Below are positions 1,002-14,295 of a DNA stretch of 64,000 nt, piece after piece. The translations under genes and the position numbers were made by a program. Positions within the stretch are counted from its first letter, which is position 1; every line of letters starts with the position of its first letter. This DNA comes from Alphaproteobacteria bacterium (GTDB lineage Bacteria > Pseudomonadota > Alphaproteobacteria > UBA2966), in contig JABILA010000006.1 in NCBI GenBank assembly GCA_018654745.1, positions 18,598-82,597 on the forward strand. Direction: 5' to 3'. Under the pieces are notes generated by a model. The model saw nothing but the letters and a program-made list of their open reading frames with translations, did not search any database and was not told where the DNA came from.

Positions 1002-1850
1002 ATGACAACCACATTTCAATATCCGTCCCTTCGCGATCGTACCGTTATTGTCACCGGTGGCGGTCAGGGGCTGGGACGCGAGATGGCATTGGCCCTGATT
1101 GCACAGGGTGCAAATGTGGTCATCACAAGTGTATCTGACACCGCCAGCAGGGATCAAACGACGAGGGACGCACAGGCATTGGGTGCAGACAGCGGCGATG
1201 TTCTGGCCTTGAAAGCTGACGTTGCGAACTGGGCCGATTGCCAAAATGTCGTTGATCAGGCTCGACAGAAATTTGGGGCCATCCACGCGTTGATTAACAA
1301 TGCCGGTCGCGGCATGCGTCTGATTTCAGAAACTTTCAACTCTATCCCGACAAAGTTCTGGGAGGCAGATGTCGACGCCTGGCGGACAGTGATGGACATC
1401 AATATCAACGGCACATTCCTGATGTCGAAAGCTGTTATGCCTGAGTTTTTGAAACAGAATTCTGGACGCATCATCAATATTTCGACGAGTGATATCACGA
1501 TGGTACGTGGTGGCTATTCCCCCTATGGGCCTTCCAAGACGGCCATCGAGGCCTGCTCGGTTGCCTGGGCGCAGGAGTTGACCGACACCGACATCACCGT
1601 AAATGTCTTACTGCCAGGCGGTGCTTCCGACACCGCATTGCTGCCGGACAGCCCGGACAAAAAGGGGGCAGACGGTAACTTGTTGCCGCCGGCGATCATG
1701 CGGGAACCGGCTTTGTGGCTCTGTTCGGATCAGTCAAATGGCGTTTCAGGTCGACGCTTCATTGCCCGTAACTGGAACGCCGACCTGCCACCTGACGAGG
1801 CCGCAGCAGGTGCCATGGAGGCACAAGCTGCAAAGCCAAAAGTCATGTAA
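1002..1850 (+). CDS. short-chain dehydrogenase/reductase (SDR) family oxidoreductase
   Basis: The ORF track gives 840..1850, but the SDR fold begins at Met 1002 (MTTTFQYPSLRDRTVIVTGGGQGLGREMA = TGxxxGxG Rossmann motif). A YxxxK catalytic region is present (YSPYGPSK). Confidence 0.75.
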   Translation: MTTTFQYPSLRDRTVIVTGGGQGLGREMALALIAQGANVVITSVSDTASRDQTTRDAQALGADSGDVLALKADVANWADCQNVVDQARQKFGAIHALINNAGRGMRLISETFNSIPTKFWEADVDAWRTVMDININGTFLMSKAVMPEFLKQNSGRIINISTSDITMVRGGYSPYGPSKTAIEACSVAWAQELTDTDITVNVLLPGGASDTALLPDSPDKKGADGNLLPPAIMREPALWLCSDQSNGVSGRRFIARNWNADLPPDEAAAGAMEAQAAKPKVM

Positions 1851-2129
1851 GATACTGGAATATGTTATCCCTACTTAATGTTCACCCAGCGAAGCTGAAA
1901 GAAGTTATCTGCTCGCTGAACAAGATCAATATTGCTGCGCACACTCCATGAAAGTGCTTGTTGATGCAGCGGTATGAAAGGCAGCTCTGCCTTGAATATT
2001 GTGTGCACTTCGTCGATCATGGCCTGACGTTTGGGCTGATCAACTTCAACAGAGATCTGGTCCAGCGGTCCAGCCCAACAGATAAAGATTTGTATCGCGG
2101 GCCTTGTATTTGCAGCAAACCGCTGCGGG

Positions 2130-3209
2130 TTACAGTCCCTGCTGCATGGTCAGGCGGATAAACTCCGCCCGCTTGATCGGACCACCGGAATTCTGGTTAG
2201 GGAATTGTTTGTTCCAGGCATTCATCTTGACGGATAAATTGCACAAGGCAGAACCTATCTCGGTATGGTTTTCCTGAACGATACCCTGGAAACGCTTAAA
2301 GCGTTTAGCGTCAATGTTGTCCCACATTTTCGACGTTTGTGCTTCGAAATCATGGAAGCGGTCTGAAGCCCCGGTGTTCATGCTGGAAAACTTGTCATAG
2401 ACAGCATCGCAGGTTTTCATCAAGGTCTTGTCTTGCTTCAAGGTTCGATTTTCCATGATGTCATCGACGGAATAACAAAAGTCGGTGAAAGCAGACTGAA
2501 CGGATTCCCAGCATTCCCGGAAATAGGCGACAGACAAATAGATATCACCAAAATCTTCCAGGAAGACAGGCACTTCCTCGAGGCCAATACCAAGTTTGTC
2601 CGACATCATTTTCAGTTTGGCAATTGCCTGACGCTTGTCCGGGTGTCGAAAAAGCTCCACCACGTCACCATAATTTTTGACGCCTTCATTACCGTCGCCA
2701 AAAACTTCAAGAATAACGCGCTGGGTAAATGCTGACATATAGCGATGCAGTTGCACCTGCTTGGCCGCTGAAAGCCGCAGGCTTTCGTGATCATCGACAC
2801 GAATTCCAAGTTTACGCAATTCGATCCGCAGGCTGTACACATCATATGAATGAAGCTTGGCAAGCTTTGTCAGCATTTTGACATCGTCAGAGCCAATATT
2901 GGTATAGACCTGACCAATAGCGCTGACGGGCAGCTGACCACTGCCCATTTTGTCACCTTCAAACAGCTCGATGACGCTTTCAAGTTTGGCGTTCTTGATC
3001 ATACGCGTCCGCCCGAGACTTTTGCTCTCGAAGGGAATAACGCGAAGCGGCAGGGTATGAATGGAATCGCGATCGTGATCCGAATCCTGATCGGGTTCTT
3101 GAACCGCAGCGTTCTGCGCCGTGAAGTCTGCTTCTGCAGCGAGTGTCATGTTTGCCCCCGGGCTTTGACTCTCAATTGTTGCCGTCATCATAGTGATAAA
3201 CAGGAACAA
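2130..3209 (-). CDS. hypothetical protein (orphan, no recognisable family); acidic low-complexity N-terminus
   Basis: 359-aa ORF sitting downstream and co-directional with the response regulator and hybrid histidine kinase. Local GC is visibly lower (about 47%) than the flanking genes. No TM segment or signal peptide seen. Alternative starts at Met7/8 or Met21. Confidence 0.45.
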   Translation of the reverse strand: MFLFITMMTATIESQSPGANMTLAAEADFTAQNAAVQEPDQDSDHDRDSIHTLPLRVIPFESKSLGRTRMIKNAKLESVIELFEGDKMGSGQLPVSAIGQVYTNIGSDDVKMLTKLAKLHSYDVYSLRIELRKLGIRVDDHESLRLSAAKQVQLHRYMSAFTQRVILEVFGDGNEGVKNYGDVVELFRHPDKRQAIAKLKMMSDKLGIGLEEVPVFLEDFGDIYLSVAYFRECWESVQSAFTDFCYSVDDIMENRTLKQDKTLMKTCDAVYDKFSSMNTGASDRFHDFEAQTSKMWDNIDAKRFKRFQGIVQENHTEIGSALCNLSVKMNAWNKQFPNQNSGGPIKRAEFIRLTMQQGL

Positions 3210-3334
3210 GACCAGTAATTAACGAGACAATGAGTGGAACAAATAAATTAACTAAAGTTAACGCCAAATGTTTACTTGCGGACAACTTGAAAACATCCAG
3301 GTAACGGTTGAAATAGCGACATATTTTACATGGA

Positions 3335-4045
3335 TCAGGGGACGTAAGTGTATCCGGCACCACGAACCGTTTTGATGGCCTGTGGCTTGCCAGGGTCTCG
3401 TTCGACCTTGCGGCGCAGGCGGGCAATCCGGATATCAATAGATCGGTCAAAGGGGTCCCAGTTTTTGTTGTGGGCCAGTTCCATCAATTGATCGCGTGTG
3501 AGTACCCTGTTGGGTCGTTCAACAAAGGCTCGCATCAAGTCATATTCCATGGCCGTTATGGCAATTTCCTCGCCACTGGCATCAAACAGACTTCGGCCAT
3601 GAACATCAAAATGACAGGTACCGAACCGGACCCGCTGTTTGTCTTCGGCACTTTCCGAGGTTGCCGAGTTTGTTCTCATGCGTCTGAGAACTGATTTCAC
3701 CCGGGCATAAAGTTCCCGCATGTCGACCGGTTTGGCCAGATAGTCGTCGGCCCCGACTTCAAGACCCACAATCCGATCAATAACTTCCCCGGCAGCTGTC
3801 TGGAAAATGATGGCGACATCTGACGTTTCACGCAAATAGCGCGCCAGTGTCAAACCATCCTCCCCCGGCATGGCAATATCCAGAATGACCAGGTCTACAG
3901 GTTCCCCCAAAGACATGATTTCCTTCAACGCTTCGCCACCTGTTGCAGGCGTTACGCGAAAACCCTTGAGTTCAAGATATTCCTGCAGGGTATCTCGCAA
4001 ATCCTGCTCGTCATCGACGACGACTATGTGATCTTTCCTGGCCAT
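3335..4045 (-). CDS. OmpR/PhoB-family two-component response regulator (REC + winged-helix DNA-binding)
   Basis: N-terminal receiver (VVVDDEQDLRDTL...DLVILDIAMPGEDGL) and C-terminal winged helix (RLRRKVE...TVRGAGYTY). Confidence 0.85.
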   Translation of the reverse strand: MARKDHIVVVDDEQDLRDTLQEYLELKGFRVTPATGGEALKEIMSLGEPVDLVILDIAMPGEDGLTLARYLRETSDVAIIFQTAAGEVIDRIVGLEVGADDYLAKPVDMRELYARVKSVLRRMRTNSATSESAEDKQRVRFGTCHFDVHGRSLFDASGEEIAITAMEYDLMRAFVERPNRVLTRDQLMELAHNKNWDPFDRSIDIRIARLRRKVERDPGKPQAIKTVRGAGYTYVP

Positions 4046-4136
4046 TATGAATATCCTCGCGGCAGGAGCCCCTTTATCCGGCCATTATTAAAGTGTTTGA
4101 ATTCAGAAGCTGAACCCGGTCCCCCACATTCTTGCA

Positions 4137-4541
4137 TCAAGATGGCGCGCCATCAAACAAGTTGACTTCAAATGGCATTTTCACTTTCAGGAACCTTGAT
4201 TCGGGCAAGGGCCTGGCATTAGGTGACTTGTATTCACAGCGCCGATCCAGAGCCGGTTTTGGTCCACACGTCACAAATGTTGCATCCGTCCGCGACATGC
4301 CGATATCACTCAAGGTCCGGGGATCAAGATACTGGAACGATTGTCCGGCCTTGCGGGCCTGGTGGACGTCGTGGGCATCTTTCACTTTTCCCCAGATAAA
4401 ACGCGATGCTGTATCAACCGCATCCAGATAGAGATCAATATTGTTGCGCCGTCTCGCCCACGCCGCACCAACAACTGCACTATTCGTTCGACTGCGTGTC
4501 GATCCGATTTCAGCTTCCTTGCCATTTACATAAACAAACAT
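4137..4541 (-). CDS. hypothetical small protein with a weak DUF1127-like '...LSDIGMSRTD' motif
   Basis: 134-aa ORF between the histidine kinase and the response regulator on the same strand. The motif L-x-DIG-x-SR-x-D resembles the C-terminal signature of DUF1127 proteins, but here it is followed by about 55 more residues. Coding status uncertain. Confidence 0.25.
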   Translation of the reverse strand: MFVYVNGKEAEIGSTRSRTNSAVVGAAWARRRNNIDLYLDAVDTASRFIWGKVKDAHDVHQARKAGQSFQYLDPRTLSDIGMSRTDATFVTCGPKPALDRRCEYKSPNARPLPESRFLKVKMPFEVNLFDGAPS

Positions 4542-4696
4542 GACGTATTCCTTATCCCCTAGATCGTTTTCAATGACCCCTGAGTCATTGGTCGCAAAGT
4601 AAACATAGAGGGCGGGGATTTCAGGATGGTGTCGAAATCAGCTGTTTATTGTTTCAATTGTTTCAGTTTTACCAAAATCGCATCATTTCTGCTGCT

Positions 4697-7600
4697 TCAA
4701 GCCTGCGTTAACAGGGTTACCAGGTTTCGCACTTCTTTCGGCGTAATCGGTTTTTCGATATGTGGTCGCCCCGATTCTTTCAGAAATGAAGCAATATCAC
4801 TGCTGAGGGTATCCCCGGTTACAAAGGCGATCCGGTCGACAAGTTCCGGATGTTTGTCTCGCAAGGCACCCAACAACCACGGACCATCATAGTCCGGCAT
4901 CCGCAGATCACTCAGGATGACATCAAAATCCGTTAGCCCGACCGCATCAAGTGCGCGTTGGCCATTGTTCCTGATCAAGGTTTCATGACCGTCCAACTGC
5001 AATATTTCGGCGATCAGTTCGGCGACTTCAGGCTCGTCATCAACGATCAAAACGGCCAAGGTCTTTGGACCCTTGGCATTCTCCAGGGTCAGGTCCCCGC
5101 CTTCAGGGGCGGCAGTGCCGACGGGCAGCCGGATCGTAAAACTGGCTCCCCGACCTGGTTGGCTGAACAATTTGATCTTGCCGCCATTGGCTTCGATTAA
5201 CCTGTGACACAAGGCCAGACCTATGCCCGTGCCTTCACCGACTTCCTTGGTGGTAAAAAATGGCTCAAATATACGACGCCTGATTTCGTTCGGCACTCCG
5301 GGGCCATTGTCCTTCACCTTGATCACAACATGCTCGCTGCCGTCGCTGTAACCGCTGGTGATACGCACGCGACGACTACTGCCTTTCTGACGCAAGGCAT
5401 GCTCGGCATTCATAATCAAATTGGTCAGCACTTGCGTGATTTGATCCGGGTCAACATTCACGTTCGGCAGGGCCGTTGAGAGATTTGTCGAGACGTCGAT
5501 ATTGGCACCACGCAGGGAATAGCTGGTTAGCTCGAGCGCCAGATCAATCATGTTGTTGGCGTCCGCCTGCACCCGATCCCGGGTTTGTTGCCGGGCCATG
5601 GCCAGGAATGTTTTGACAATGCGGGCGCAGCGATCTGCGGCTTTGCCAATCCGCTCGGCCCGTGCTGCCACCTTTGGATCATCTGCAGTTTCCTGCAATA
5701 ACAAGGTCTGGCCCACGACAACCGAAAGGGGATTATTCAGCTCGTGTGAAACACTCGCCAGCAATTCACCCATTGCGACCATCTTTTCGCTGACATGCAT
5801 GACTTCGCGCTGGCGTGCCATTTCATCCTGCAAGGCCCGCATCTCCGTCAGATCAAATATGGTCGATACAATGAGTTTTTCTTCCTGATAGGACATCAAT
5901 CTGGCAGCGTAAGAAGACCAGAATGACGTTCCATCTGCTTTCATGAATTCGATCTCTCTGTCGTTTACTTCGCCATCATTCAGAAGTTCCTGCCAGATTT
6001 CCCTGCGCTCCTGAGGGTTGGCCCAATAGTCCGTCGCGACGATGCCCGGCCCCATATCTCCGCGCTGAAAGAGTTCTTTGGATTTTGGACTTTCATAAAG
6101 AACAACGGCATCCTCCCCCCGGCTCACTGTGATGGGAATCGGTGATGCTTCCAGAATTTGACGCACAGACTCTTCGCTGTCTCTCAGCGCATTTTCCATA
6201 GTCTTGCTTTTGGTGATGTCTGTCAGGGTTATGACAAACCCTTTTTGTCGGGTCGGATGACAGGAATACAGGAACCAGCGGTCATCGTTTTGCAATCGAA
6301 ATTCAAAGTCACGCACGGACTTTCGGTTGCCGTCCTTGTCAAAGTGCATGGCAAAAAATGATTCCAGCATTTCGCCGTGCGCATAATAGTCGCCCCGGTC
6401 TGATCCTTCCCTGATCAGATCTTCATAGCTGGCACCGGGCACAAGGTTTTCGCGACTGGTGGTATTGAAGTCCAGATACTGGCTATTGCAAGTGATCAGT
6501 TTGCCATTGTGATCAAAAAGAGCGAAGCCTTCTGACAAGGCTTCAATCGCATCTTCAAGAATATCATTGGCCTTCTTCAAGGACCCTTCCCGTTCCAATT
6601 GTTCGGAAAGATCCATGATGCTGGTGATATGCATATCGCGGCCATTGATATTGACCAGCTTCGAATTGCAGGTAATCCAGTAGGTCGATCCGTCTTCACG
6701 GCGGTAATGGATCGGATAATCTCTCAGTTCACCGCTTTCCCTCAGGGCCTCAATAAACGCAGGGCGATCATCAGGATTGGCATAAAGTTCCTGAACATGG
6801 AAAGCATCATCACTGTATTCATCACGGCCAAACATCCTGGATGCCGCGGGGCTTTCGTAAACAACCCTGCCGGTTTCAAAATCCACAAGGATGGCAGGCA
6901 GCGGATGGTTTTCGACCAGGGTTCGGAAATGAATTTCACTGTCTCTCAATTCTTCTTCGACATGTTTTTGCAGCGAAATATCCGTACTGACGGCCGATTG
7001 ACCACCGAGCGATGTGGCATCAAGGGTGATCAGTATCCATTCACCCGTCGTCATCCTGACTTCGACAGACTTGCCAGTGCTCTCCGTCATGACCTGCAAT
7101 ATTTTTTCAGCCATTTCTTCAGACTGAACAACCGGGCTACCTTCGAAGATTGCAAACTTCGGCATGATGGCGTCGACCAGATGTCGAAACGGTTGCCCCA
7201 GAAAATGGGCGCACTCATGTCCGGTAACTTCGGCCAGCGGATTGTTGATCGCAATAATGTTTCCGTCTTTCGATGTCAGAACGAAACCGCTGACCAGACT
7301 GTCGATTGCGTCCGTGTAGTCCTGATTCATATCCTCGAGCGCAAGAACGCTTTCGTCATATTTTTGCCGCAGGGTAATCTCGGCGCTGATATCAACCAGG
7401 CAGCCCTGAAAAAGCGTTGGCCCGCTGGCAGTGGTATTCATCGCAGTCAGTTGATCCCTGAACCAGATCCAGTCGCCTTTGCCATTCCGGAGGCGATATT
7501 CAACGCTGGTCGTTTCGTTCGTCGCAAGATCACGAACGGCCGCTTCATAGGCTGCCCGATCCAGACTATTGATCTGCTGGTTTAACCAGGAGGGATCGAC

Positions 7601-7831
7601 TTCGAAATTTTCGGGATCATAATCAAGTATTGCCCCGGCATTCGGACTGACAAATTGTACGTCGGCACTTTGGCTTATCAAAGACTGATAAATGATGACC
7701 GGTGTGGCCGCTAACAGCTGAAGCATATGGGGGCTCAATATGTCCTGATCCGGCATATTATCGTTCACGTCTGAAGAATTTGACGAAGTCATTTTCTGAT
7801 CCTCTGGCTGATCAACAACAACGTTTTCCAA
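4697..7831 (-). CDS. hybrid sensor histidine kinase: multiple PAS/PAC domains + HisKA + HATPase_c + C-terminal receiver; cytoplasmic (no TM)
   Basis: 1044 aa. Repeated PAS-like blocks are visible. HisKA H-box ([15 protein letters not shown]), ATPase G-boxes (DNGPGVP...GTGIGL) and a C-terminal REC ([13 protein letters not shown]...[12 protein letters not shown]). Confidence 0.85.
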
Positions 7832-8067
7832 TCAGGATCGTCGCCGGATCAAGGCCCCACAGTCATATGTATTGATCATAAATATACAGGCAATTTCGGT
7901 CTCGTGTCCCGGCGCATCTGCAAATGAAACAATTGAAACCATTTCGCATCGTAACGGTCGCAATACAGAAACACACCTTCCCTATCTTCCAATTATCCAC
8001 TGGGGACACCCTCTTGGGGACAGCATGAGATCAATCTTGAATTCGATCAAAACAGTACGAGGGAACA

Positions 8068-9000
8068 ATGAACTTTTTTGTAGCAGACCAGACAACCGAA
8101 CGATTTGCCCGATGCATTGCAGCATCACAGCGCGTGAACTGGGACATCCAGACCGATGTTATTCGCGGGCGTAAATTTGACATCGGACATAAATTTTTGC
8201 CCGACGGCCTTTCAAAAGTTGAAGACATGGTGTTTCTCACCGAAACTGAAAGACGTTATGTCAGTCAAATTCAGGGCCGCACCTATGCCAATGTTTTTGG
8301 CCTGGTCGAGCGCTTTATTAACGCCAAGATTCTCGAAGTAGGACAGGATCACGTGCTTGGTGATCAGGTAGCTATGGAAGCCGTTGTTCGCTTCAGCAAT
8401 GAAGAGTTGAAGCATCAGGAATTGTTCCGCCAAATTGATCGCATGTGCGAAGAGGTTATGCCTGCGGGTTACAGTTTTGCGCCTGATCCCAACGACGTTG
8501 CGAAAGCGGTTCTAAGTAAAGGCACCTGGGCTGTATTGGCCCTGACGCTGGATATTGAATTGTTTACCCAGACACACTACCGGGAAAGCATTGATCCAAA
8601 CGATACCTTGTCACCTTTGTTCAAGGACGTTTTTTTGTATCACTGGAAAGAAGAAAGTCAGCACGCGATCATCGACGAACTGGAGTGGGTTCGGCATGAC
8701 GCCAGCGTTTCAGCGGAAGAACGCGACACAGGTGTTACCGAGTTCATTGAACTTGTAGGCGCGGTAGACGGTATCCTCCAGGGTCAGGCTGCAGCTGACG
8801 CCGCATACTTCGCTGAGACTTGCGGTCGGCAGATGGCAGCAGAAGAAGTGGTCGCCGTGGAAAGCGGCATGTTGGCGGCGTATCGCTGGCAGTACATTTT
8901 CTCCGGTGCCCAGCACCCCCATTTTGGCAAAGTGCTTGGCGGTATGATTACAGCTGAACAAGGCGAGCGCATTCAAAGCGCGCTCGGCAGTATCGGTTAA
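8068..9000 (+). CDS. ferritin-like diiron oxygenase, AurF (p-aminobenzoate N-oxygenase)-like family
   Basis: 310 aa with two ExxH motifs (EELKH, EESQH) plus upstream carboxylates (TETERRY) in the arrangement typical of AurF/CmlI-type diiron proteins. RBS GAGGGA upstream of ATG 8068. Confidence 0.55.
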   Translation: MNFFVADQTTERFARCIAASQRVNWDIQTDVIRGRKFDIGHKFLPDGLSKVEDMVFLTETERRYVSQIQGRTYANVFGLVERFINAKILEVGQDHVLGDQVAMEAVVRFSNEELKHQELFRQIDRMCEEVMPAGYSFAPDPNDVAKAVLSKGTWAVLALTLDIELFTQTHYRESIDPNDTLSPLFKDVFLYHWKEESQHAIIDELEWVRHDASVSAEERDTGVTEFIELVGAVDGILQGQAAADAAYFAETCGRQMAAEEVVAVESGMLAAYRWQYIFSGAQHPHFGKVLGGMITAEQGERIQSALGSIG

Positions 9001-9083
9001 TCCGAAACACATCATGAAAGCCGGCCCGGCAATCAAACCGGGCTGGCGGCCATATCATCTACACATCAAAAGGAAACAAGAAC

Positions 9084-9656
9084 ATGTCCGCAATCGCATC
9101 TGCAGATTACCCGAATATCGTCAACGGTATCGACGTCGACGCCGTTCAGGCCCTGGCGCAACAAGTGTCAGACGACCCCGCCACGGGACAAACACACTGG
9201 CAGGTGACCAGCGCCTGGCAAGGTCAAACCCACAGCCAATCGAAAGTGTCCGCTTATTCTTTGGGCGGCGAAAAGATTGCCCGTGATTTTACAATCGACA
9301 TTGATGAACCCGAAGAACTCGGGGGCAGCAACCAGTTTGCCAATCCGCAGGAGTACCTCATTTCGGCACTCAACGCCTGCATGATTGTTGGCTACACTGC
9401 CCTTTGCGCCCTGAATGGCATTCGCATCGACAAACTGGAGATTACCACCGAGGGCGACATTGATCTTCGAGGCTTTCTTGGACTTGATGCCGATGTGTCA
9501 CCTGGCTACGACAGCCTGGAATACACCGTTACAATCAAGGGGGATGCCAGCGAGGAAAAGTTCAGGGAGATACATGAGATGGTGACGGCAACTTCACCGA
9601 ATTTCCACAACATCTCTACACCCGTTGCCCTTCAGCCGACATTTATTGTCGAATAG
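9084..9656 (+). CDS. OsmC/Ohr-family (peroxiredoxin-like) protein
   Basis: 190 aa. OsmC-like signature region (EYLISALNACMIVGYTALCALNGI). RBS AAGGAAA upstream. Confidence 0.75.
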   Translation: MSAIASADYPNIVNGIDVDAVQALAQQVSDDPATGQTHWQVTSAWQGQTHSQSKVSAYSLGGEKIARDFTIDIDEPEELGGSNQFANPQEYLISALNACMIVGYTALCALNGIRIDKLEITTEGDIDLRGFLGLDADVSPGYDSLEYTVTIKGDASEEKFREIHEMVTATSPNFHNISTPVALQPTFIVE

Positions 9657-9679
9657 GCAAACAACTCAAGATTAGAAGA

Positions 9680-9710
9680 ACGGCTGCTATTTTTTATGGT
9701 AGCCGTTTTT
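9680..9710. terminator. bidirectional Rho-independent terminator between the convergent OsmC-like and NDH-2 genes
   Basis: ACGGCTGC-TATTTTTTATG-GTAGCCGT hairpin followed by TTTTT, with an A/T run on the other strand. Confidence 0.5.
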
Positions 9711-9728
9711 CATTTTGAACGCCGGAAG

Positions 9729-10919
9729 TTATGTCGATTGTACCTGTGGATCAAAGGCGATGAAGTCATAGATCGCAGCCTCGCCAGCCTCGGGCGGCGG
9801 AGGGTAGATCAGTTTTTCATTGATGTTCCGCTTGAGTGTTTTTGCCTCTTCTCCGGTTTTGGAAACTTCACGCTCCCACCCCGTTGTGAAAACGGCACCC
9901 ATAGGGCCCAGGTCCATACAGGTCACATAACGTTCCTGCTGATATTTTCGCATGGCCTTATTCGTTAAATCCCGCACAGCATTATGCCCGGCGTGCTGAC
10001 CCAGCTTGAGCGCATGTTGGCAGGACATCATCGAGACGTGCTGATCATCCGTCATGGCCCTGGCGACATCCCCGGCAACGAACACAGAAGGGAAATCGTC
10101 GAGTTTCAGGAATTCGTTTACAGCAAGCCTTCCGGTTTCGTCCAACGGCGTATCAAAACATCTGGTCAGTGGACTGGCTTCAAGACCGGTTGCGAAGATC
10201 ACCGTGGACGTTTTGATAACTTCGCCGCTTTCCAATGTCAGGCCTTGCGCATCAAGGGACGTTACTGAAACGCCTGTTTTCACCTCAATCGAACAGCTTG
10301 CCAGGGTTGAATTAATTATTGGCCTGGCACTGTCACCCAATCCCTCTCCGACATCCGCTGCCTGGTCGAGCAGGACAATCCTTGCACTTTTCCCAAATTG
10401 GCCCCGTAGTTCTGTTGCTGTTTCAATACCTGTAAAACCGGCACCCACAACCACAAAGGTCGAAGAAGCTTCACAGCTATCCTTATCCAGATTGCCAAGA
10501 TGCTTATCAAGCCTGGCCGCCCCTTCATAACTGTCGTTGTCAAATCCGTATTGCAGAGCGCCTGGAATGGGCAATTTGCGCAATTGACTACCGGTGGCAA
10601 GGATGAGGCTGTCCCATGACAGGTTTTGGTCGCCGTCATTGTTTTGCAGGTTCAGCATCTTTGTGGATGGATCAATGTTTGAGACTTCGGCAACCCTGAA
10701 CCCGACATCGATGGCCGCCAATAGCGGCGACAGGGGAACCCGCATTTCTTCCTTTGCCCCTTGATAAAGTCGGGGACGAATGACCAAAGCCGGGTCTTTG
10801 CTGATCAAGGTTATTGCCATTTCTTGTGCCGATAGACCCTGGCGGTTGCGCTCGGCTGCAGCACTCATGGCCGCCCACACACCGGCGAACCCACCACCCA
10901 CAATCACGATATTTTTCAT
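9729..10919 (-). CDS. FAD/NAD(P)-binding oxidoreductase, type II NADH dehydrogenase (NDH-2)-like
   Basis: 396 aa. Two Rossmann dinucleotide motifs (IVIVGGGFAGVWAA and FVVVGAGFTGIE). Confidence 0.75.
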   Translation of the reverse strand: MKNIVIVGGGFAGVWAAMSAAAERNRQGLSAQEMAITLISKDPALVIRPRLYQGAKEEMRVPLSPLLAAIDVGFRVAEVSNIDPSTKMLNLQNNDGDQNLSWDSLILATGSQLRKLPIPGALQYGFDNDSYEGAARLDKHLGNLDKDSCEASSTFVVVGAGFTGIETATELRGQFGKSARIVLLDQAADVGEGLGDSARPIINSTLASCSIEVKTGVSVTSLDAQGLTLESGEVIKTSTVIFATGLEASPLTRCFDTPLDETGRLAVNEFLKLDDFPSVFVAGDVARAMTDDQHVSMMSCQHALKLGQHAGHNAVRDLTNKAMRKYQQERYVTCMDLGPMGAVFTTGWEREVSKTGEEAKTLKRNINEKLIYPPPPEAGEAAIYDFIAFDPQVQST

Positions 10920-10980
10920 TTCTTCTGCTCCGTCAATTAATCATTGCCAGCGATTACAACATTTGCAAAAATGAAAATCT

Positions 10981-11028
10981 ATATGCAATTTATGCAATTG
11001 GATTCGCAAATATGCAATTTACAAACAA
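10981..11028. promoter_or_regulatory. tripled ATGCAATT(T/G) direct repeats in the divergent NDH-2/LysR intergenic region (candidate LysR operator)
   Basis: ATATGCAATTT-ATGCAATTG-GATTCGCAAATATGCAATTT. The last copy overlaps the LysR start codon. Confidence 0.35.
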
Positions 11029-11935
11029 ATTGTCCTGGGACGACTACCGATATGTGTTGGCTATATTCAGAGCACAGGGGGTAACAGGTGCTGCGGCCGA
11101 TATGGGTGTGAACGTATCAACTGCTTTTCGGCGGTTGGACAAAATCGAAGCCATTGTAAGAACGATGCTGTTTGATCGCCAGCGCGGCGGGTACGTGCCG
11201 ACAGCGGCTGGACAGGAAGTTGTCCGGGCTGCAGAGATCATGGAGCAAGCGGCATTTTCTGCCGATCGCACTGTCAGCGGTCATGATCAGGACCTGACCG
11301 GTGAATTGCGTATTACAGCAACCGAAACCATGGCTGTTTGTTTTCTGACCCGGCACATGAAATCGTTTCGGCAAAAGCATCCTGGCCTGACGGTAAATAT
11401 CAGCAGCGAGAACCGGGTTCTCAGCCTGGCCGAGCGAGAAGCCGACATCGCCCTGAGGCCCAGACGCCCGACAGACGAAGCCCTGGTTGGCCGCAAGATC
11501 GCGAATTTACGCTGGGGGATATATGGACGCTCTGACCGGATAAAGGAAATTCCCGGAACAAAGAAACTGAAGGACCTGTCTGACCTTGCGGGGCAACAAT
11601 TCGTTGTCTGGGACGGTGGGGCGCTGGCGAAAGAAACTGAAGACTGGATGGTCGACAATATTCCGGACGTCGACCTGGTGCTTCGATCAAGCAGTCTGAT
11701 TACCAATGCCCAGGTCGCGGCAACAGGGGCTGCCCTGACATTGCTGCCTTGCATCGTTGGCACGATCTGGCAAGATCTTGAGCCTGTCATCAGTCCGTTA
11801 AAAGACAACGAGAAATCCGGCGAACTCTGGCTGGCCTTTCATGAAGACATGCGTCACAACGCCCGCGTCCGGGCACTTGTTGAACATATAGCCGAGGCAG
11901 CATCAGAAGACACCGCTTTGTTTGAGGGTCGCTGA
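11012..11935 (+). CDS. LysR-family transcriptional regulator
   Basis: Start moved to Met 11012 (ORF track 10814). N-terminal HTH (LSWDDYRYVLAIFRAQGVTGAAADMGVNVSTAFRRL) plus a LysR substrate-binding domain. Divergent from the NDH-2 gene. Confidence 0.8.
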   Translation: MQFTNKLSWDDYRYVLAIFRAQGVTGAAADMGVNVSTAFRRLDKIEAIVRTMLFDRQRGGYVPTAAGQEVVRAAEIMEQAAFSADRTVSGHDQDLTGELRITATETMAVCFLTRHMKSFRQKHPGLTVNISSENRVLSLAEREADIALRPRRPTDEALVGRKIANLRWGIYGRSDRIKEIPGTKKLKDLSDLAGQQFVVWDGGALAKETEDWMVDNIPDVDLVLRSSSLITNAQVAATGAALTLLPCIVGTIWQDLEPVISPLKDNEKSGELWLAFHEDMRHNARVRALVEHIAEAASEDTALFEGR

Positions 11936-12027
11936 CGACGATCTTTTTAAAGGCCACTGCATTCCATCTTGCTGCCGAATGCGCAAGGATAGTTTGATCG
12001 TCGTAGATACAGTTCGGGAAATGTCTC

Positions 12028-12792
12028 ATGAAAAAAGTTGTTGTCGTCACCGGCGCCGCGCGCGGTATTGGCCTCGCGACGTCTAAAAAATTCCTCGCCG
12101 AAGGCTGGCAGGTTATCATGATCGATATTGATGGCGCAGTCCAAACCACGGCCAGAAATTCACTCGACGCGGATGACCTTACACTGGCAATTGAATGTGA
12201 TGTCTCGGAACCAGAGCAGGTTACACTTGCTGTCGAAGAAGGCCTCGCCAGGTTTGGCCGGATCGATGCCCTGGTGAACAATGCCGGCATCGCCGTCTTC
12301 AAGCCTGTTGTTGAAACCAGTTTCGAAGAATGGTCGCGTGTTCTGGCCGTAAACCTGAACGGCCCTTTCATCTGTACCCAGGCTTGTGTTCCGGCGATGA
12401 TGGCCAATGGTGGCGGCAGCATTGTCAATATTACCTCTATCTCTGGCACCCGGGCATCGATGTTGCGCGTCGCCTATGGCACCAGCAAAGCCGCCTTGAT
12501 GCATTTGACGAAACAACAAGCGGCAGAACTTGGCAATCATGGCATCAGGGTCAACGCCGTCTCCCCCGGTCCGGTCGACACAGCCATGGCAAAGGAAGTC
12601 CATACTGCGGATATACGCGCTGATTATCATGACGCCATCCCTTTGAACCGTTACGGCACCGAAGAAGAACTGGCCGAAGCTGTGTATTTTCTGTCCAGTG
12701 ACAAGGCCAGCTATATCAATGGTCACACCCTGAATGTGGATGGTGGCTTTGCCGCCACCGGCATTGGACTTCCGAGTATTCGCACGACTTGA
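12028..12792 (+). CDS. SDR family oxidoreductase
   Basis: MKKVVVVTGAARGIGLA (TGxxxGxG), NNAG, YGTSKAAL (YxxxK). Confidence 0.8.
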   Translation: MKKVVVVTGAARGIGLATSKKFLAEGWQVIMIDIDGAVQTTARNSLDADDLTLAIECDVSEPEQVTLAVEEGLARFGRIDALVNNAGIAVFKPVVETSFEEWSRVLAVNLNGPFICTQACVPAMMANGGGSIVNITSISGTRASMLRVAYGTSKAALMHLTKQQAAELGNHGIRVNAVSPGPVDTAMAKEVHTADIRADYHDAIPLNRYGTEEELAEAVYFLSSDKASYINGHTLNVDGGFAATGIGLPSIRTT

Positions 12793-13069
12793 CGCAGTAT
12801 CGCCTGTCGCTTTGGCCGATCAGAAATCGCTGATCTGGCTGAGCAGTTTTGCATAGAAAATGTCAAAAATGGGCTGATAAGGCCCTCTGAAGTCATCAAA
12901 TCAACCTGAATCTGACTTTTTGACCCACGAATGATCATTTCGTGGGGGGCTGATTCCGTGAACAATTCAATATAGTTACCGCACTGCAGCGTAATATTAA
13001 GTAATATTATTCGCTTTATTAAATATTATTTATTGACACATTAGATTTTGCCAGCCTATCCTCCTGCCC

Positions 13070-13093
13070 GAAATCGATTTCAGGTCCTGAAAT
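13070..13093. promoter_or_regulatory. overlapping perfect palindromes GAAATCGATTTC / ATTTCAGGTCCTGAAAT upstream of the sugar ABC operon (candidate operator)
   Basis: The sequence is self-complementary. It lies about 190 nt upstream of the SBP start in a 490-nt AT-rich intergenic region that also contains a TTGACA hexamer at 13033-13038. Confidence 0.3.
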
Positions 13094-13284
13094 TTATTTC
13101 AGTCGGCAACGCAAAAATAACAGTCCCTGGTTCAGACCGCATTGCCGATCAAAACAAAGGAATTTTGAACCAGGGGGGGTTAAGCGAAATTTATCGAAGG
13201 GCGTGCCGGGCTGGCCAAGGGGAAGTTACCAATCAACCGGTTCTGCACGCAGCCAACAGGCAAATTTACAACAGGAGATTAATC

Positions 13285-14295
13285 ATGAGTATTAAAAAAG
13301 CACTTCTTGGCGCAACAGTCGCGCTGGTGGCTGGACTGGCCACACAATCTGCAACCGCTGGAACCAAATTCGCATGTGAGCCGGGCGAAACCTACATCAT
13401 GAACGTGATGGTTTCGAGCCACCCATACTGGGTGCCTGTCTATCAGGGCTACAAACAGGCAGCACAGGCCATGGGCTGTGAAGTCATTTTCTCAGGCACA
13501 CCTGACTATGACATCACCAAGCAAATCGCTTCTTTCGAACAGGATCTGGCCAAGAAGCCTGCCGGCATCCTGTTGCACCCGATGAATGCTGACCCGTTCA
13601 TTGAGCCGATTAACCGCGCCATCAAAAACGGCACTCAGGTCGTGACTTTTGCGGCAGATTCGCCCAAATCAAACCGGGTTTCCTACATCACTTCCGACAA
13701 CCTCGCCGAAGCCAAATATGCGGCCGACGAAATCGCCGGTCTGATGGGCAAAAAAGGTGAGTATGGTGTTCTGGAAAATCCAGGTCAGTCAAACCATGAC
13801 TTGCGCGTCACAGCCTTCATCGCCTACATGAAGAAAAACTACCCGGACATGAAACTGGTTGGCCGTCAGGCAACAAACCAGGATGCGTCCAAAGCTTATA
13901 CTGCAGTATCATCCATGATCCAGGCCAACCCGAAACTTGGCGCGCTGTGGATCCCTGAAGCTGGTTCTGCTGAAGGTGCTGTTGCAGCCGTTCTGGAAGC
14001 AAAAGCAAAAGTCATCATCATGCATGCTGACGTTACACCCGTAACGCTGGAGCACATCAAAGCCGGTAACATCCACAAGGCCTTGAACCCGAACCAGGGC
14101 ATGCAAGGTTACATGGGTTTCATGCTGACTTTCATGGCCACACGTTCCGGCCTGATCGACCCCTTCAACGACTACAAGCGTACAGGCTTCAACCCGATGG
14201 GCGTGCCTTTTGTTGACAACGGTTTCGCCGTCATCACCAAAGCCAATGCCGACGATTTTGAACTCGGTACATACATGAAGGGTCGCTCTCAGTAA
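13285..14295 (+). CDS. sugar ABC transporter periplasmic substrate-binding protein (periplasmic-binding-protein type I fold)
   Basis: Start moved to Met 13285, with AGGAGA RBS 7 nt upstream. Signal peptide (MSIKKALLGATVALVAGLATQSATA) followed by a ribose/galactose-type SBP body. Confidence 0.8.
   Translation: MSIKKALLGATVALVAGLATQSATAGTKFACEPGETYIMNVMVSSHPYWVPVYQGYKQAAQAMGCEVIFSGTPDYDITKQIASFEQDLAKKPAGILLHPMNADPFIEPINRAIKNGTQVVTFAADSPKSNRVSYITSDNLAEAKYAADEIAGLMGKKGEYGVLENPGQSNHDLRVTAFIAYMKKNYPDMKLVGRQATNQDASKAYTAVSSMIQANPKLGALWIPEAGSAEGAVAAVLEAKAKVIIMHADVTPVTLEHIKAGNIHKALNPNQGMQGYMGFMLTFMATRSGLIDPFNDYKRTGFNPMGVPFVDNGFAVITKANADDFELGTYMKGRSQ

Follow-up and report, generated by a model that had tools for sequence, protein, structure and literature searches.

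The segment between positions 2130 and 7831 of a 64,000-nucleotide stretch from an alphaproteobacterium of the UBA2966 lineage (GenBank assembly GCA_018654745.1, contig JABILA010000006.1, positions 18,598 to 82,597; hereafter the window, to whose first letter all coordinates refer) is ordinary native alphaproteobacterial chromosome and not a low-GC island. It holds a signalling module, built from a cytoplasmic multi-PAS hybrid histidine kinase, a small DUF1127 protein and an OmpR/PhoB-family response regulator, together with a separate gene for a 339-residue protein of an uncharacterised family. We read the module and the gene as distinct units that became neighbours through rearrangement, and put the probability of this reading at about 0.7. 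A sequence-only reading of the same DNA had correctly located four open reading frames (ORFs) in series on the minus strand, and had proposed that the last of them encodes either the output or target of the signalling genes or a horizontally acquired protein of novel function within a lower-GC island. Neither proposal has fared well: what looked like a foreign island with an orphan gene turns out to be ordinary, and the by-products of the analysis are a box-defined putative regulon and the recognition of a large uncharacterised protein family.

The 339-residue protein is encoded at 2130..3149 on the minus strand. It had been called as a 359-residue protein (2130..3209), and alignment moves its start to ATG 3149, because the stretch 3149-3209 is not conserved in the closest relative, which has an indel and a stop there, because a GGGGG resembling a ribosome-binding site and the ATG itself are conserved, with close homologs beginning MT(L/I)AAEAD, and because the NCBI annotation of a near-identical protein is 339 residues long. 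The order kinase, small ORF, regulator, 339-residue gene is kept in the compared contigs P0002 (homolog 81% identical) and P0004 (73%) and in locus L005/L096 (82%), and the adjacency of regulator and 339-residue gene is restricted to a narrow clade, marked by regulator identities of 92% or more. The window copy is a member of a paralogous subgroup (64% identity or more), and homologs at 64-76% identity sit elsewhere, without the module. Locus L088 keeps the downstream SBP_bac_5-OEP-YaaD synteny while its upstream gene is a short-chain dehydrogenase, which shows that the two-component block was joined on secondarily. In about 30 of 70 distant loci the homolog lies between fmt/def (downstream) and truA, dapE and dapD (upstream), a core housekeeping neighbourhood; the site between fmt/def and truA is the commonest one in the family. 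The kinase-DUF1127-regulator module is likewise much more widespread than its adjacency to this gene, and the genes downstream of it vary.

The spacer 3150..3334, upstream of the gene on the minus strand, appears to hold a promoter region of its own. Four elements are kept in six loci whatever the upstream gene: TATTTGTT..CTCAT, TAATTACTGG (at about 3211-3220), CTATGAT (3187-3193) and GGGGG (3155-3159). Since they are conserved while the upstream neighbours differ, the 339-residue gene probably has its own promoter, and we take it to be a putative monocistronic unit. The spacer between regulator and 339-residue gene folds no better than shuffled sequence (z +0.91), and Rfam gives no match over 1800-8200. 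Upstream k-mers enriched across 64 family loci were considered as a regulatory site and set aside, as by inspection they seem to belong to the 5' coding part of truA, which runs divergently. A separate observation concerns the first eight codons (3126-3149, minus strand, ATGACACTCGCTGCAGAAGCAGAC), whose DNA is near-invariant, third positions included, in L002, L003, L005, L006 and L088, although the proteins share only 64-82% identity; the G-run ahead of them is kept as well. This pattern suggests that the region of translation initiation is constrained, or that it is a target of regulatory RNA.

The base composition that had pointed to an island is real but small. GC content (GC) over 2130-7831 is 0.502 against 0.525 for the whole window, in the lowest ~1% of equal-sized windows (standard deviation 0.012), and the 339-residue gene, at 0.487, has the lowest GC among the 52 window genes. 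Its GC at third codon positions (GC3), 0.559, all but equals the window mean of 0.561 (standard deviation 0.034, 52 ORFs), and measured against the remaining window its synonymous codons score 0.107, the average being 0.088; its GC at second codon positions (GC2), 0.344, is the window's lowest. Kinase, regulator and 339-residue genes have GC3 values of 0.549-0.566 and codon scores at or over the window mean. Because GC3 and codon usage are typical and GC2 is the lowest, the deficit is one of amino-acid composition, to which AT-rich spacers add, and not of foreign DNA. The stretch 3210-3334, singled out earlier as very AT-rich, does have a GC of only 0.352 (the true spacer 3150-3334 has 0.389), yet it is unremarkable among the 22 window spacers, which average 0.462 (standard deviation 0.058) and include four others at 0.31-0.41. 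Flanking synteny of the region is common to relatives, and the arrangement itself is syntenic, not patchy, in L005/L096 and the P0002 and P0004 contigs.

Directly beyond the 339-residue gene lies the remnant of a gene for a family-5 ATP-binding cassette (ABC) substrate-binding protein (1871..2062, minus strand), consisting of the last 63 codons and the stop, without a start codon. It is 86% identical to residues 464-526 of an intact 526-residue ORF at the same position in L005, and intact SBP_bac_5 genes follow the 339-residue homolog in L088 and the P0004 contig. About 1.4 kb was deleted here in the window lineage.

The protein had been described as unrecognisable, and in one sense it remains so: Pfam, NCBIfam, PADLOC and PHROGs searches gave no informative match. 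It is no orphan, however, and its family is real and conserved. A first homology search returned at least 266 homologs at E < 1e-3, none with a Pfam domain, and a profile search of 1.84 billion representatives (50% identity clusters) returned 577 clusters, nearly all single-domain proteins of 320-370 residues. In a scan of species-representative genomes the family occurs in at least 535, nearly all of them Rhodospirillales, with carriers that include Pararhodospirillum, Rhodospirillum, Caenispirillum, Roseospira, Magnetovibrio, Thalassospiraceae and many marine metagenome-assembled genomes (MAGs). Several MAGs carry two copies: CAYFKJ01 (L007, L012), JBLXFH01 (L059, L065) and SHVQ01 (L039, L049). 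One member of the JBLXFH01 and SHVQ01 pairs lies near fmt/truA/dapE and the other elsewhere, and neither CAYFKJ01 copy has such neighbours; the presence of two copies per genome indicates that the family diversified by duplication. No domain fusions were found among the longer homologs, no consistent weak match in a Pfam scan of all 69 aligned family members, and no mention of family accessions in the literature.

Conservation in the family alignment starts at D-x-DRDS-x-H-x-LPL, and further near-invariant blocks are GSGQ, SYDVYSLR and FLEDYGD. The N-terminus had been described as acidic and of low complexity. This holds for about 23 residues, which are variable and predicted to be disordered, and fails for the adjoining D-x-DRDS-x-H-x-LPL, which is a near-invariant family motif. 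The protein is predicted to be soluble, with an isoelectric point (pI) of 5.8. An AlphaFold2 model built from 69 sequences, which begins at ATG 3191 and so carries 14 extra residues before the true start, is confident (predicted local distance difference test 85.8, predicted TM-score 0.82) and consists of a disordered stretch of 30 residues, a small alpha/beta domain, connecting helices and a bundle of three long helices of 35-44 residues. The structure search proposed earlier thus yields a model without a significant match: the best Foldseek hit against the PDB has E 0.68, and the family profile against PDB sequences reaches E 0.05 at best, which is not significant. The family is therefore without counterpart among solved structures.

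The best and only functional lead for the family comes from Azospirillum, and it is a lead rather than a conclusion. Among 72,556 plasmids searched, homologs occur only on Azospirillum chromid-like replicons (35-37% identity over the full length). The homolog closes a run of same-strand genes within a plasmid-borne flagellar cluster in four species, A. brasilense, A. lipoferum, A. ramasamyi and A. oryzae (L211-L214); the run is a lateral-flagellar operon in which a response regulator gene is followed by flagellin, flaF, flbT, flaG, a DUF1217 gene and the homolog. The homolog starts 35-40 nt after the preceding gene and, counted from the OmpR-family regulator gene ahead of the flagellin operon, is the sixth gene downstream. 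This context points to a flagellum-associated accessory or regulatory role. A flagellar link beyond Azospirillum found no support: genes for flagellin, FlaF, FlbT, FlaG, DUF1217 proteins and FliI are absent near the homolog in the window and in L001-L090 (88 other loci).

The signalling module opens with the kinase gene (4697..7831, minus strand, 1044 residues), which may start at ATG 7792 instead, giving 1031 residues, the length called in a relative. The earlier description of a cytoplasmic kinase with several PAS domains is borne out. Pfam identifies PAS_3, PAS_9, PAS_7 and PAS domains, HisKA (687-750, with H696 in SHELNNP), HATPase_c (794-904) and Response_reg (927-1038, with D975), the composition of a hybrid kinase, and there is no transmembrane or other hydrophobic segment (maximum 19-residue Kyte-Doolittle value 1.21). 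No histidine phosphotransfer (HPt) domain occurs in the kinase or among the ORFs scanned at 221-1850 and 8068-14295. Either the kinase receiver would be a phosphate sink or regulatory domain, with the dimerisation and histidine phosphotransfer (DHp) domain phosphorylating the regulator directly, or an unlinked HPt protein would be used. Antisense to the kinase, a plus-strand ORF of 328 residues (6599..7585) and further ORFs were set aside as shadows of the kinase gene.

The regulator (3335..4045, minus strand, 236 residues) is, as had been proposed, of the OmpR type, with a Response_reg (REC) domain (residues 7-117, 92.1 bits) and a winged-helix Trans_reg_C domain (158-233, 78.4 bits). The acidic pair D11/D12, the phosphoacceptor-motif D56 (VILD) and K105 (LAKP) are present. 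Its best NCBIfam match is OmpR (NF007005) at 232.4 bits, and since this is under the equivalog cut-off of 331 the protein is a family member and not an OmpR ortholog.

Between the two lies the small ORF 4137..4541 (minus strand), which in-frame indels and a conserved core relative to its L005 ortholog mark as a genuine coding gene. It encodes an extended DUF1127 (YjiS-like) protein of 134 residues, basic (pI 9.6) and with 9.7% arginine. The window protein scores 17.1 bits against a gathering cut-off of 23.3 for PF06568; its orthologs score 31.5 bits (L005) and 23.0 bits (L089), and those in L085 (weakly) and L087 have precomputed matches. The motif WA.RR..D.Y..A...W...LDDRTLxDIGxSR is conserved in five loci, and the C-terminal motif of the window protein, YLDPRTLSDIGMSR, aligns with five orthologs. 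The DUF1127 gene keeps its position in L085, L089 and the P0002 and P0004 contigs and lies downstream of the regulator in L087. L085 (regulator 77% identical) has OsmC and 310-residue protein genes divergent from kinase, DUF1127, regulator and Trypco2 genes; L086 (73%) has kinase, small ORF, regulator, globin and cyclase; L087 (63%) has kinase, regulator and DUF1127; and L089 (82%) has a 318-residue protein gene divergent from kinase, DUF1127, regulator and a methyltransferase-like gene. In L086 the 66-residue ORF between kinase and regulator (6764-6964) aligns with the N-terminal half of DUF1127 proteins without having the DUF1127 motif, and is possibly a truncated or wrongly called gene.

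PhoR, a sensor kinase, is a binding partner of small DUF1127 proteins from A. tumefaciens and E. coli, which tune the Pho response (PMC12501420), and because of this precedent a kinase-modulating role is the most economical one for the protein encoded here, which by analogy probably modulates the kinase by direct contact. In the literature searched, we found no description of DUF1127 genes embedded in two-component operons.

The module is accompanied by an 18-nt tandem direct repeat, TGAAACAAT-TGAAACAAT. Box 1 (4648..4665, minus strand) lies 106 nt upstream of the DUF1127 ATG and is found exactly, at the same position, in L005, L085, L086 and L089/L090, where the flanking spacer has diverged. 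Across loci the box is always intergenic, in the orientation of the downstream gene, and 75-108 nt upstream of the DUF1127 gene. Over 1.19 Mb of compared loci, mismatch-free copies of its 15-mer core are confined to the neighbourhood of this module. All box-linked regulator homologs share an invariant recognition helix, DRSIDIRIxRLRxK. Tandem direct repeats are a hallmark of the sites of winged-helix response regulators of the OmpR/PhoB family, and they usually recur in that family every 10-11 bp. Box 1 is probably a binding site of the regulator and a point of autoregulation, and TGAAACAATTGAAAC is the candidate site of its phosphorylated form. A variant with three 9-mers in tandem was seen in L147.

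Box 2 (7925..7942, plus strand; TGAAACAATTGAAACCAT, one mismatch) lies in the divergent spacer and faces a gene for a 310-residue protein (8068..9000, plus strand), which starts 125 nt downstream of it and is divergent from the kinase gene; 0.15 chance matches are expected. In L005, L085 and L089 the ortholog of this gene is likewise preceded, at 122-125 nt, by an equivalent box, and the gene stands beside the kinase in these loci and in the P0002 contig. The protein has more than 8000 homologs, many of them 67-70% identical, and its very large family is strongly conserved; E81, E113, H116, E164, E196 and H199 (E/ExxH/E/ExxH) are invariant in 15 homologs of 66-85% identity. Its match to AurF is weak (PF11583, 14.9 bits, E 0.015, where the cut-off is 29.6), precomputed PF11583 matches exist for a few homologs, and no sequence relative was found in the PDB. 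On the strength of the invariant ligands and the weak AurF match, we regard it as a predicted di-iron carboxylate protein. The next gene on the same strand, 83 nt downstream (9084..9656), encodes an OsmC-family protein (Pfam, 53.7 bits), and the same pair occurs in L085 and the P0002 contig. The 310-residue gene is probably a target of the module, and because boxes lie upstream of these genes and not of the 339-residue one, the likely output of the module is the di-iron/OsmC pair and the module itself, not the 339-residue gene.

In the mechanism that we propose, the PAS domains of the kinase would sense a cytoplasmic cue, possibly redox or oxygen, and the kinase would phosphorylate the OmpR-type regulator. 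The phosphorylated regulator would then bind the repeat upstream of the DUF1127-regulator genes, in an autoregulatory loop, and the second box upstream of the divergent operon, leading to expression of the di-iron protein and OsmC, while the DUF1127 protein would adjust the kinase by contact, after the PhoR example. In L086 a second exact 18-nt box (7810-7827) stands upstream of genes for a bacterial globin and an adenylate/guanylate cyclase (7981-9492), with which an oxygen- or redox-related regulon would fit.

Several points weigh against our reading. No terminator is predicted after the regulator gene, nor any stable hairpin, so that read-through from the box-controlled DUF1127-regulator promoter could couple the 339-residue gene to the module; and the direct repeat GTTAAC-N4-GTTAAT (3247-3262), which the window shares with L005 alone and which has no other copy in the window or the compared loci, could be a second kind of regulator site. 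Its 10-bp period is of OmpR-type architecture, and it is absent from homologs without the module. Taken with the same-strand adjacency kept in the window and its relatives (homologs 73-82% identical), and with the L086 gene that occupies the same position downstream of the regulator and does carry a box, these features would make the 339-residue gene an output of the module specific to one clade. We consider this unlikely, as the repeat is known from two sequences only, the adjacency amounts to a single evolutionary event among close relatives, the core promoter elements travel into loci that have no module, and the family is distributed far more widely than the adjacency. There is moreover no TGAAACAAT box upstream of the 339-residue gene; a 7-of-9 half-site there has the wrong orientation and is not conserved in L005. 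The gene is thus most likely not an output of the adjacent module. The box itself is assigned to the regulator by co-occurrence only, from sequence, and its 9-bp period is unusual for the OmpR family; both points would fit recognition by another factor instead, or a promoter or RNA element that has simply been carried along with the module. A scan of metagenomes for the 18-mer gave at least 120 matches, most of those listed not beside a related regulator, as expected by chance in a huge database. The same scan gave several loci in which the box flanks regulators only 51-55% identical that have the identical recognition helix, and this recurrence, together with an exact core confined to the module in the compared loci, fixed distances from start codons within diverged spacers and the tandem architecture typical of winged-helix response regulators, makes such an alternative improbable. 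Two further weaknesses are the hybrid kinase's lack of an HPt partner in the locus, which leaves the phosphotransfer route to the regulator uncertain, and the flagellar context of the 339-residue family, a single-genus observation whose linkage is not conserved in the compared loci outside Azospirillum.

An imported island that carried in a novel orphan gene has the lowest-ranking GC of segment and gene in its favour, and also the truncated gene remnant next to the 339-residue gene, by which rearrangement occurred there. The deficit nevertheless sits in second codon positions and spacers, with native third positions and codon usage. The window contains no tRNA gene, and the flanking ORFs scanned hold no integrase or transposase Pfam domains, showing metabolic or regulatory domains instead. 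No phage homologs of the protein were found, and its plasmid matches are confined to the Azospirillum chromid-like replicons. With a family vertically distributed in the Rhodospirillales, a core-genome site between fmt and truA and flanking synteny common to relatives, we regard horizontal acquisition as highly improbable. A native segment in which a module and a separate gene were brought together by rearrangement accounts for these observations.

In the predicted regulon, an exact box and a di-iron/OsmC pair are tied to a PAS hybrid kinase and an OmpR-type regulator that are widespread and unstudied, and in marine alphaproteobacteria such targets point to a response to redox conditions or oxidative stress. 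The conserved position of the DUF1127 gene in a two-component operon is independent genomic support for the idea that DUF1127 proteins contact sensor kinases, and it offers a natural cognate pair. The 339-residue family, with a confident predicted fold and a core-genome location in at least 535 species, and with neither a solved relative nor a domain model, is a target for structural genomics. We also advance, as a doubtful extension, that one of two stronger claims may hold. The 339-residue family may be an unrecognised cytoplasmic component of flagella or motility, a notion prompted by the paralog that adjoins an OmpR-type regulator here and by the Azospirillum homolog that follows an OmpR-family regulator and flagellin operon; or the extended DUF1127 protein may be a built-in third component of the kinase-regulator unit. 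If true, such a hard-wired kinase-modulator design would generalise the DUF1127-PhoR finding and come with a box regulon of di-iron oxygenase and OsmC.

Comparison with known systems places the module near TorS/TorR, ArcB/ArcA and EnvZ/OmpR. The kinase has PAS, HisKA, HATPase_c and REC domains, the regulator joins REC to a winged helix and has its best NCBIfam scores with OmpR, TorR and ArcA, and the tandem direct-repeat site in promoters of neighbouring genes recalls the tor, pho and ArcA boxes. It differs in that no NCBIfam equivalog cut-off is reached, so that it is an ortholog of no named system, in its soluble kinase without HPt, in the 9-bp repeat period and in the DUF1127 gene set between kinase and regulator. 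The DUF1127 protein shares with SDP1-3 of A. tumefaciens, YjiS of E. coli and Salmonella and CcaF1 of R. sphaeroides the C-terminal motif LDDRTLxDIGxSR and a basic, arginine-rich composition. Unlike these proteins of under 50-70 residues, the module proteins have 108-136 residues, with N- and C-terminal extensions, and are encoded within a PAS hybrid kinase two-component operon rather than in trans, contact with the kinase being suggested by analogy; next to the other module DUF1127 proteins, the window copy alone falls clearly under the Pfam cut-off. The putative target pair resembles AurF-like or ferritin-like di-iron carboxylate oxygenases in the E, ExxH, E, ExxH residues of the 310-residue protein and its weak AurF match, with OsmC downstream, and departs from AurF-like enzymes in scoring under the Pfam cut-off and having no PDB sequence relative. 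Finally, the 339-residue protein matches hypothetical proteins of the Rhodospirillales (WP_014415083 of Pararhodospirillum photometricum, WP_014249885 of Azospirillum lipoferum 4B) over its full length at 35-82% identity, with DRDS-x-H-x-LPL, GSGQ, SYDVYSLR and FLEDYGD common to both. Most family members lie between fmt/def and truA, or at the end of the Azospirillum flagellin-flaF-flbT-flaG-DUF1217 operon, whereas the window copy stands beside a two-component system.

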